Shown: piece by piece, positions 13,689 through 14,471 of the stretch | Layout of the letters: the number at the start of each line of letters is the position of its first letter | How positions within the stretch are numbered: position 1 is the first letter of the stretch | From: a virus | Strand: one strand, 5' to 3' | Length of the DNA stretch: 22,792 nt | IMG/VR virus record: IMGVR_UViG_3300033143_004906 | Made by a program: the position numbers and the translations under genes | Notes under the pieces: model-generated | The model's input: the letters and a program-made list of their open reading frames with translations, nothing else | Told to the model about the DNA's origin: nothing | Database searches by the model: none

Positions 13689-14471
13689 ATGCAGCTAGAA
13701 CTATTGATAATTGACCCGCAGAATGATTTTTGTGACCCAAACGGATCGTTATTCATACCTGGAGCAAACAAGGATATGGAAAGGTTATCCAAGTTTGTTA
13801 TTCGGGTACTTCAAAAAATCTCGGACATCCATGTTACAATGGATACCCACCATTTGATTGATATTGCCCATCCGATATTCTGGATTGATTCGGATGGCAA
13901 TTCGCCGGACCCGTTTACCATAATAGAATCAGGAAACAATATATGGAGAACCAGAAATCCAACATGGCAGGATAGAGCTGTTGAATATTTACAGTGTCTC
14001 AAGGACAACGGTCGTTATCCTCTGTGTATCTGGCCTCCGCATTGTTTAATCGGACTTCCCGGGCACAACGTATTTCCGGAACTTTCTGATGCATTGACAG
14101 CTTGGGAATATCGCTTTGCCATGGTTGATTACGTCACCAAGGGATCCAATTTCTGGACTGAACATTATTCCGCAGTTCAGGCAGATGTTCCTGACCCCCA
14201 TGATCCTTCAACTCAATTGAACACCAAGCTGATTGAAATCCTCAAAAATGCCGACCTTATTGTCCTGGCCGGTGAAGCAAGATCCCATTGTCTTGCCAAT
14301 ACCGTAATGGATATCGCCAACAACTTCGGGGAAGACAACATTGCAAAAATGGTTCTTCTTGAAGATGCGTGTAGTGATGTTCCCGGATTTGAAGGTATGG
14401 GCGAAAATTTCATGAACGAAATGATCGGTAGGGGGATGCAAGTTTCCAACACCTTGGATTTCTTAAGTTAA
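13689..14471 (+). CDS. pncA: Nicotinamidase/pyrazinamidase (PncA-like; isochorismatase-fold cysteine hydrolase)
   Basis: LLIIDPQNDFC (isochorismatase N-motif), D-x-H-H...H metal ligands (MDTHHLIDIAH), CIWPPHCLIGLPG (PncA signature WPxHC) and catalytic Cys context LAGEARSHCLANTVMD. Confidence 0.8.
   Translation: MQLELLIIDPQNDFCDPNGSLFIPGANKDMERLSKFVIRVLQKISDIHVTMDTHHLIDIAHPIFWIDSDGNSPDPFTIIESGNNIWRTRNPTWQDRAVEYLQCLKDNGRYPLCIWPPHCLIGLPGHNVFPELSDALTAWEYRFAMVDYVTKGSNFWTEHYSAVQADVPDPHDPSTQLNTKLIEILKNADLIVLAGEARSHCLANTVMDIANNFGEDNIAKMVLLEDACSDVPGFEGMGENFMNEMIGRGMQVSNTLDFLS

Follow-up and report, generated by a model that had tools for sequence, protein, structure and literature searches.

The stretch of DNA analysed here, referred to as the window, is the whole 22,792-nt sequence of the IMG/VR virus record IMGVR_UViG_3300033143_004906, and the subject of this report is a nicotinamidase-like gene within it, named iso, together with the genes that follow it downstream, named vWA, PP2C, kinase and p372 (Table 1). 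A phage-like genome of low GC content (0.36) is the source of this fragment. PHROG matches in the window included RtcB, RNase H, an ATP-dependent DNA ligase and several phage families of unknown function, and a Phage_ABA_S domain and many ORFans were also present. The window is syntenic with contigs of 255-306 kb that encode gyrase, topoisomerase, methylase and ligases; a megablast search with the complete window as query, run against 50,697 phage records, gave no match, and it was by protein similarity that the window could be placed with uncultured huge phages.

The iso open reading frame (ORF) was confirmed to be a real gene. A Shine-Dalgarno-like site, AAAGGAG, lies 7-13 nt 5' of its ATG, and a search of 5.8 billion clustered proteins at E<=0.001 returned 6071 matching proteins, a number that places the gene far beyond chance. 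The best 120 of these 6071 matches were 60-71% identical over the full length and had sizes of 257-303 aa, mostly 263-273 aa. The vWA, PP2C and kinase genes (the triad) follow iso co-directionally in one tightly packed operon, the kinase start overlapping the PP2C stop by 4 nt. The window vWA protein itself had no Pfam match, and its identity is based on the Pfam matches of family members and on the motifs of the metal ion-dependent adhesion site (MIDAS). VWA models were matched by 6-8 of 25 family members (best E 6e-7), and in the alignment the MIDAS signature was intact, with D45-x-[ST]-x-S49, T114 and D150 invariant. The Ser-rich C-terminal tail of the family (LAKLAxFVSxSISSQSQALGTG) was strongly conserved as well. 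In the kinase protein the kinase part is intact, and the C-terminal 285 aa were predicted to form 29 beta-strands with a pLDDT of about 85-93; no Zn-ribbon Cys pattern was found in this domain, and a fold search with the protein was dominated by kinase matches and assigned no fold to the C-terminal part.

Table 1. Positions of the iso operon and of the elements bordering it in the window.
Feature	Position	Strand	Size	Remarks
iso, long-type PncA-like nicotinamidase (predicted)	13689..14471	+	260 aa	ATG start, TAA stop; cysteine hydrolase, isochorismatase fold
vWA/MIDAS protein	14497..15252	+	251 aa	Pfam matches of family members, MIDAS motifs
PP2C-family Ser/Thr phosphatase	15297..16145	+	282 aa	Pfam PP2C_2, E 1.7e-11
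Hanks-type Ser/Thr kinase (aa 1-260) with all-beta C-terminal domain (~285 aa)	16142..17821	+		
p372	17833..18951	+	372 aa	last gene of the operon; lineage-specific accessory
Untranslated leader	13485..13688	+	204 nt	GC-rich (0.47); ribosome-binding site AAAGGAG at 3' end
Perfect palindrome GGGAGGGTATATTATATATACCCTCCC	19126..19152			12-bp stem; in the 224-nt gap 3' of the operon

Nicotinamidase-type active site of iso

The original prediction had read a PncA signature in this gene (WPPHC, a D-x-H-H...H metal site and a catalytic Cys), and the ORF was found at exactly the given coordinates. The motifs IIDPQNDF (D9), MDTHH..AH (D52, H54, H55, H61), WPPHC (W115-C119), VTKG (K151) and ARSHC (C201) were all present, and the protein has a catalytic triad, D9/K151/C201, a metal site made of D52-x-H54 and P-x-H118, and an oxyanion element, G195-x-A197. 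Across 174 distinct sequences of the iso family D9, F14, D52, H54, W115, H118, K151, G195 and A197 were invariant, C201 was kept in 173 and H61 in 171. The residue after C201 was Leu in the window protein and Val in many relatives.

A profile of 23 family members (A1) was aligned to yeast Pnc1 (2h0r) with E 2e-9, and the Pnc1 numbering was taken from this alignment. It paired D9 with D8, D52 with D51, H54 with H53, H118 with H94, K151 with K122, C201 with C167, G195 with G161 and A197 with A163 of Pnc1, so that the oxyanion segment G195-E-A197-R-S-H-C201 stands opposite G161-V-A163-L-E-Y-C167. The nicotinamidase fingerprint has been given as DxH ... PxH with V after the catalytic Cys, and the metal-loop motifs as DWHPxxH, DFHxxPxxH and, in Firmicutes, DAHxxxDxxHPE; the residue roles in that general description agree with the iso alignment (PMC3581539). 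The iso sequence D52-T-H-H-L-I-D58-I-A-H61-P62-I fits the spacing of the Firmicutes type, with D58 and H61 invariant or nearly so in the family, and P116-P-H118 fits PxH.

The best sequence matches of iso among solved structures were PncA of M. tuberculosis, Pnc1 of yeast and PncA of P. horikoshii, and PncA was the only NCBIfam family to score above noise; the PHROGs match was a single unannotated family. With the AlphaFold model of iso (pLDDT 87, pTM 0.84) as query, Foldseek ranks 1-12 in the PDB were all taken by nicotinamidases, from seven organisms and with E values of 2e-15 to 1e-9, and N-carbamoylsarcosine amidase (CSHase), biuret hydrolase and unassigned isochorismatase-like proteins ranked below them. 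In the alignment the pocket is lined by F14, W115, Y/F160, D52, H54 and H118, all conserved, which we take to form the cage for nicotinamide as in the solved structures. Judged by its sequence, the active site of iso is of the nicotinamidase type and is predicted to be catalytically intact, and nicotinamide is probably the substrate.

With the solved PncA/Pnc1 enzymes (EC 3.5.1.19; 2h0r/3v8e from yeast, 2wta from A. baumannii, 3pl1 from M. tuberculosis, 1ilw from P. horikoshii) iso shares the fold, the D-K-C triad, the DxH...PxH metal site, the G-x-A oxyanion/cis-peptide element and WPxHC. It differs from them in its low identity (17-20%) and in its length of 260-270 aa as against 180-216 aa, which is due to an insertion of about 50 aa within the metal loop, between H61-P62 and P116-x-H118, and to an acidic loop. 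The latter, ADVPDPxDP (aa 165-173), is part of a near-invariant segment specific to the iso family, VTKGSNFWTEHYSAVQADVPDPxDP.

It is very improbable, and contradicted by the data, that iso is a generic isochorismatase-family hydrolase which lies beside the triad by chance. The Pfam Isochorismatase match would suit such an enzyme, as it is weak and partial (27.8 bits, cut-off 27, aa 173-233 only). However, iso has every residue specific to nicotinamidases, and these do not vary in the family; nicotinamidases rank above CSHase, biuret hydrolase and the other isochorismatase-like structures; and the linkage to the neighbouring genes, described below, holds in both directions and is maintained across phyla and viruses. 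The choice of a PncA-type enzyme over a generic hydrolase, already made in the original prediction, is thus upheld both by the alignment of the residues with the PncA catalytic triad and by the twelve leading Foldseek matches.

Linkage of iso with vWA, PP2C and kinase genes

Of the first two homologues looked at, one, in a metagenome-assembled genome (MAG) of Desulfobacterales, had three genes after it, for proteins of 253 aa, a PP2C and one of 572 aa, which is the order of the window; the other, in Candidatus Venteria, had only a gene for a 245-aa protein. Two sets of loci were then compiled, to which genomes representing species contributed 80 loci and IMG/VR viral contigs 67, and in these sets ORFs were called and searched with profiles built from the neighbour genes of the window. 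Adjacency was counted where at least 1.2 kb of downstream sequence was available, and the triad where at least 7 kb was available on both sides. A vWA gene lay directly 3' of iso on the same strand in 111/129 loci (52/65 cellular, 59/64 viral) with a median gap of 35 nt, and vWA, PP2C and kinase were all present in 63/76 loci, or 83% (16/24 cellular, 47/52 viral). The reverse test, anchored on vWA, found iso in 80/80 IMG/VR loci, almost always immediately upstream. Because the linkage holds in both directions, iso and vWA are regarded as obligate partners and four genes as the usual unit; in this coupling to a vWA protein, and usually to PP2C and kinase too, iso is unlike PncA/Pnc1. The gene almost certainly belongs, as its conserved lead gene, to a PncA-vWA-PP2C-kinase module, and the earlier suggestion that the nicotinamidase might belong to the neighbouring system is strongly supported in bacteria and on viral contigs alike.

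Cellular carriers were found among the Acidobacteriota (Pyrinomonadaceae, Blastocatellia), the Armatimonadota (Capsulimonadaceae), the Desulfobacterales and the Thiotrichales, the last of which often had the iso-vWA pair only (L003, L006, L007, L027, L069). In cultured Desulfonema ishimotonii the module has the gene order of the window and adjoins nrtR, so that the bacterial side is open to experiment. On the viral side many of the carriers are contigs of 100-600 kb; iso homologues occur in uncultured phage genomes of 462-595 kb, including LR756511, LR745208 and LR756500, and module sequences identical to those of the window were present on three other JGI contigs. The viral and cellular copies are phylogenetically intermixed, 17 viral sequences having a cellular nearest neighbour. 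The family is thus large and conserved, with thousands of proteins in the databases and hundreds of bacterial and viral loci, and apparently undescribed.

Three loci binned as archaeal MAGs also carry the module, namely L004 (Promethearchaeota), L012 (Thermoplasmatales) and L151 (Thorarchaeota). L004 and L012 show window-like synteny (RNase H, iso, vWA, p372, PP2C, kinase), and in L151 ORFans are arrayed along a single strand together with genes for gyrase and topoisomerase; all three loci have the appearance of huge-phage contigs placed in the wrong bin.

The base composition of the module was uneven. The iso and vWA genes had GC contents of 0.432 and 0.435 and GC contents at third codon positions (GC3) of 0.437 and 0.429, against a GC3 of 0.10-0.23 in most neighbours. 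GC3 was also raised in a major-vault-protein (MVP)-like gene upstream (0.42) and in p372 (0.38), and was at the genome baseline in PP2C (0.177) and kinase (0.232). The original prediction had taken the GC-richer block as a sign of co-acquisition. The block is real and argues for a joint history, but of iso and vWA only. Recent co-acquisition of the whole cassette was rejected, since PP2C and kinase are at baseline GC3 and the excess in iso and vWA is common across loci: iso exceeded PP2C in GC3 in 55/57 viral and 31/35 cellular related loci, and iso/vWA exceeded PP2C/kinase in most. As the excess is found in most related loci, no recent acquisition is required, and the raised GC3 may reflect codon usage linked to expression or conservation as much as recent transfer.

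The vWA protein could instead be a maturation factor of the metallo-nicotinamidase, acting as a co-chaperone in metal insertion or assembly, with kinase and PP2C only tuning it. The minimal iso-vWA unit of the five Thiotrichales loci and the high GC3 shared by iso and vWA and not by PP2C and kinase, which fits stoichiometric, abundant expression, are in line with such a role, and nicotinamidase activity can depend on metallochaperone-like proteins (PMC6941528). Proteins with vWA domains are mentioned as co-chaperones in MoxR-type systems (PMC7824862). We consider this explanation improbable, as no MoxR or AAA+ ATPase partner occurred in the conserved neighbourhood, the triad is complete in 83% of the loci with enough flanking sequence, and the conserved Ser-rich tail of vWA points to phospho-regulation.

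NAD+ salvage context and a possible phosphorylation switch

All ORFs of 150 iso-anchored loci were clustered, and recurrent neighbours were confirmed with Pfam and counted by profile search. A PP2C homologue was present in 98 of the 150 loci. The commonest metabolic neighbour was nicotinate phosphoribosyltransferase (pncB) in 35/150 loci (20 viral, 15 cellular). NrtR, with a Nudix domain and the NrtR winged helix, was equally frequent (35/150), mostly cellular and usually adjoining iso. NADAR followed in 16/150 loci (10 viral, 6 cellular), NAD synthase (nadE) in 12/150 and a NadD-like adenylyltransferase in 7/150, both viral only, Tpt1/KptA in 12/150 (11 cellular) and ADP-ribosylglycohydrolase (ARH) in 8/150, cellular only. 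Genes for RNA ligase, Thg1-like and metallophosphoesterase proteins were recurrent near iso as well.

These genes were not just close to the module but interleaved with it. The order was iso-vWA-PncB-NadE-PP2C-NadD-kinase in L113 and L230, iso-vWA-PP2C-NadE-PncB-kinase in L118, NrtR-iso-vWA-NADAR-ARH-kinase-PncB in L031 and L078, and PncB-NrtR-KptA-NADAR-iso-vWA-PP2C-kinase in L047, with further examples in L217 and L191. On some viral contigs PncA, PncB, NadD and NadE were complete within +-8 kb (e.g. L113/L114, L131, L185, L191, L209, L217, L230). In two Armatimonadales loci, L048 (3919-6000) and L067 (7989-10100), a member of the iso subfamily was directly followed by pncB, and vWA, PP2C and kinase were not detected in either locus; such plain pairs imply that the enzyme can work in a simple pncA-pncB arrangement.

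ADP-ribose is the other product of NAD+ cleavage. In the classical NrtR-controlled pncB-nrtR-pncA operons, with which loci of the order pncB-nrtR-iso agree in layout, it releases the repressor (Rodionov et al. 2008, PMC2330246). The partners of PncA/Pnc1 in operons (pncB, nrtR, nadD, nadE) also adjoin the relatives of iso, and in Acidobacteriota, Armatimonadota and Desulfobacterales iso takes the position of pncA beside nrtR and often pncB. The classical operons differ from the module loci in lacking genes for vWA, PP2C and kinase, the paper mentioning no protein kinase or phosphatase (PMC2330246), and the module loci also recruit KptA, NADAR and ARH. The interleaving with pncB, nrtR, nadD and nadE suggests that the enzyme makes nicotinate for PncB and that vWA, PP2C and kinase belong to NAD+ salvage. 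By guilt of association the case for a role in NAD+ salvage is strong, and the context of the relatives supports the earlier proposal that the enzyme feeds Preiss-Handler salvage.

From the observed gene, residues, fold affinity and linkage we infer a PncA-like enzyme which opens Preiss-Handler NAD+ salvage under the control of a vWA/kinase/phosphatase switch, and which plausibly serves NAD+ reconstitution in huge phages; we give this reading a probability of about 0.68. The iso product would most likely hydrolyse nicotinamide to nicotinate and ammonia, the entry to the Preiss-Handler route (PncA, PncB, NadD, NadE). The vWA protein probably binds the enzyme, or a regulatory peptide, through its MIDAS site, and on the enzyme side contact might be made by the insertion at the mouth of the active site and by the acidic loop ADVPDPxDP. 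Kinase and PP2C probably toggle the PncA-vWA complex by reversible phosphorylation, the Ser-rich tail of vWA being a candidate phospho-acceptor whose phosphoserine could ligate the MIDAS metal, and the all-beta domain of the kinase, which is sensor-like, would respond to some cue. We see even odds that such a phospho-switch acts on PncA/vWA. In bacteria the module would be controlled by NrtR, the ADP-ribose-sensing repressor of NAD operons. In huge phages NAD+ would be rebuilt from the nicotinamide freed by NAD+-cleaving enzymes, including host NADase defences; a counter-defence role of this kind is conceivable, at somewhat less than an even chance. Since the window holds only the PncA step and the switch, the later steps would have to be supplied by the host or by other parts of the phage genome.

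Several points weigh against this reading. The iso protein failed the NCBIfam PncA equivalog test (NF008623, 31.5 bits with a cut-off of 174), so that it represents a separate long PncA-like subfamily and not an equivalog of E. coli PncA, and its Pfam match was low and incomplete, as given above. The fourth metal ligand of the Firmicutes type, Glu after HP, is I/V/L in the iso family and is followed by the insertion of about 50 aa, in a loop which in PncA of M. tuberculosis shapes the entrance to the active site (PMC3581539); with an insertion at this place the substrate could differ from free nicotinamide. The activity of the family is predicted from sequence and model. The partner genes for which the original prediction had proposed a check, those for nicotinate phosphoribosyltransferase (NaPRT), NadD and NadE, were not found in the 22.8-kb window, and pncB, nadD and nadE were not found within +-20 kb of the module in phage LR756511. 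A housekeeping-type salvage enzyme has no evident need of a vWA/kinase/phosphatase switch, the PncA-vWA interaction and the phosphorylation are hypothetical, and triads of the TerY-P-like type are documented defence modules (PMC11090510).

Some of these points could also mean that iso is an amidase, its PncA-like site retooled by the large insertion, with another substrate, for instance nicotinamide mononucleotide, nicotinamide riboside, NAD+ (converted to nicotinic acid adenine dinucleotide), or a group of the Asn/Gln or nicotinamide-like kind on protein or RNA, with vWA as a substrate adaptor. The mouth-loop insertion together with the invariant segment, the failed equivalog cut-off, the obligate pairing with a protein-binding vWA domain, and the presence of KptA, RtcB, RNA ligase, Thg1-like, NADAR and ARH genes nearby can all be read in this way. 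We nevertheless hold it to be unlikely: the pocket residues F14, W115, Y/F160, D52, H54 and H118 are conserved, pncB, which is needed only if free nicotinate is made, is present in 35/150 loci, and the place of iso in nrtR-pncB operons is the canonical place of pncA.

Another explanation starts from the triad. The four genes could be a TerY-P-like system of anti-phage defence or inter-phage exclusion with the nicotinamidase as effector, which phages would carry for superinfection exclusion; nicotinamide would be destroyed so that a competitor could not rebuild NAD+ via Nampt, or product inhibition of a NADase would be relieved. TerY-P, as summarised in PMC11090510 from Anantharaman et al. 2012 and Gao et al. 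2020, has the same three domain types in one operon, vWA, PP2C and Ser/Thr kinase being its defining layout, and a phosphorylation-dependent switch around the MIDAS/vWA protein is presumably the logic common to both. TerY-P-like modules act as stand-alone defence (Gao et al. 2020, summarised in PMC11090510). The intermixing of viral and cellular copies, with its 17 viral sequences nearest to cellular ones, would suit such a system, and the Apyc1 gene and NADAR just upstream of iso in the syntenic contig L152 suggest a conflict-related neighbourhood. The differences are considerable, however. The triad here is always headed by a nicotinamidase and is interleaved with genes for building NAD and with nrtR, whereas TerY-P goes with restriction, tellurite-resistance and CoCoNuT genes; the kinase ends in a large all-beta domain of about 285 aa and not in the OB fold (Gao 2020 type) or zinc ribbon (CoCoNuT type) of the TerY-P kinase (PMC11090510). 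A PADLOC scan at E<=0.01 gave no match, to TerY-P or to any other model, for iso, vWA, PP2C, kinase or p372, so that the triad, which had been called defence-like at the outset, is not recognisable as a defence system. An identity of 60-70% across phyla is unusually high for a defence effector, and some bacteria have plain iso-pncB pairs. We therefore regard a defence or exclusion system as quite unlikely.

The depletion of NAD+ is a recurring and central motif in prokaryotic immunity, and the NADase immune effectors, TIR and SIR2 among them, all release nicotinamide. Instead of, or besides, catalysing a metabolic step, the pair of PncA-like and vWA proteins might be a nicotinamide sensor, read out by the MIDAS protein and relayed by kinase and PP2C. 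We think this unlikely. If true, huge phages and the bacteria that share the module would sense the cleavage of NAD+ and answer it with a phospho-controlled Preiss-Handler route ('NARP4'), and a metabolite-sensing signalling device would have been built from a salvage enzyme.

The preferred reading, a switched nicotinamidase of NAD+ salvage, bears comparison with the known phage routes to NAD+, which are NARP1 (Adps+Namat), NARP2 (Nampt+Nmnat) and NARP3 (PnuC+NadR-like; PMC13464706). In all of them phage-encoded enzymes rebuild NAD+ from breakdown products, and some of the huge-phage contigs likewise encode the full PncA-PncB-NadD-NadE set. The module would differ in its deamidated four-step chemistry and in the added signalling triad, and the window differs in encoding the first step only. 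These three routes, the phage routes found in the literature searched, all bypass the deamidated Preiss-Handler route. Nicotinamidase is not mentioned in PMC13464706, the word PncA occurs neither there nor in the NARP1/2 preprint, and two comparative surveys, one on jumbo phages and one on viral NAD+/ADP-ribose systems, mention neither PncA nor isochorismatase; a PncA-like gene whose role is unknown is among the genes listed in the paper on phage G. A full-text literature search, whose coverage did not include the original TerY-P description (Anantharaman et al. 2012), found no paper linking an isochorismatase or nicotinamidase with a vWA/PP2C/kinase operon. The linkage of the module is robust and apparently undescribed in the literature searched, and its function is the predicted part. 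If confirmed, the module would be a regulated fourth route of NAD+ reconstitution in phages, the first physiological output for a TerY-P-like triad, and a case of Ser/Thr phosphorylation controlling NAD+ salvage in bacteria.

Other features of the window

The last gene of the operon, p372, had no family match in Pfam, NCBIfam, PHROGs or PADLOC and no match in the PDB. It is conserved in window-like viral contigs only, where it usually lies between vWA and PP2C; homologues were found in L004, L012, L085, L094, L138, L149, L157, L161, L162 and L170, and L152 has a 369-aa gene in the same position.

The leader in front of iso was considered as a possible riboswitch, for example an NAD+-sensing one. 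The candidate was dropped, as the leader had no Rfam match at gathering or permissive thresholds, its folding z-score of -1.94 was only marginally better than that of shuffles, and syntenic L152 has no comparable gap, a called gene ending 11 nt before iso; a tRNA scan was empty as well. Downstream of the operon, the region's best match to a sigma-70-like promoter (19113-19142) overlaps the palindrome GGGAGGGTATATTATATATACCCTCCC, which is likely to be the operon boundary. The promoter/terminator scan gave no excess of matches over shuffles.

An RNase H-like gene (RVT_3/RNase_H) and an RtcB RNA ligase gene lie just 5' of the module (11079-12898, plus strand). In viral relatives the module is repeatedly accompanied by genes for RtcB, RNA ligase, Thg1-like proteins, KptA and ATP-dependent DNA ligase, and this recurrence suggests a combined RNA-repair and NAD+ island. 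In L152, a 306-kb JGI contig, genes for NADAR, an Anti-Pycsar Apyc1-like metallo-beta-lactamase and an ATP-grasp-RNase H fusion lie close 5' of iso (7101-9552), separated from it by a 142-aa ORF; with NADAR and Apyc1 upstream, the neighbourhood in the L152 phage has a counter-defence flavour.

Further upstream is the MVP-like gene (8368-10683, plus strand; MVP_shoulder E 3e-22, Vault_3), whose product in L153 has 853 aa from an earlier start. Binding of ADP-ribose in the MVP shoulder of eukaryotic vaults has been reported in a 2026 preprint on NAD+/ADP-ribose in these vaults (bioRxiv 10.64898/2026.05.01.722283). A functional link between MVP and the module via NAD+ is conceivable and is unsupported here, as only three contigs besides the window (L115/L165, L139, L140) have an MVP homologue at a distance of up to 8 kb from the module.

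At the left end of the window, region 1-3062 contains repeats with a period of 9 nt, arranged in three blocks (about 8-1071, 1253-1881 and 2161-3041). On the minus strand of the region one frame is free of stops and encodes (Gly-Ser-Ser / Gly-Thr-Ser)n, a collagen-like Gly-X-Y sequence. The repeats account for both the GC content (0.44) and the GC skew (-0.3 to -0.39) of this end, and the ORF list gives other frames there because the Gly frame has no internal start codons. Between the repeats and the MVP-like gene lies an 829-aa ORF (3941-6430) with an extremely low GC3 of 0.10, whose weak PADLOC match to DruC (E 0.0036) was set aside. It adjoins a minus-strand gene (6719-7369) for a 216-aa protein with an N-terminal zinc finger of the ROS/MucR type (E 1.3e-6), which is likely to be a phage transcription regulator.

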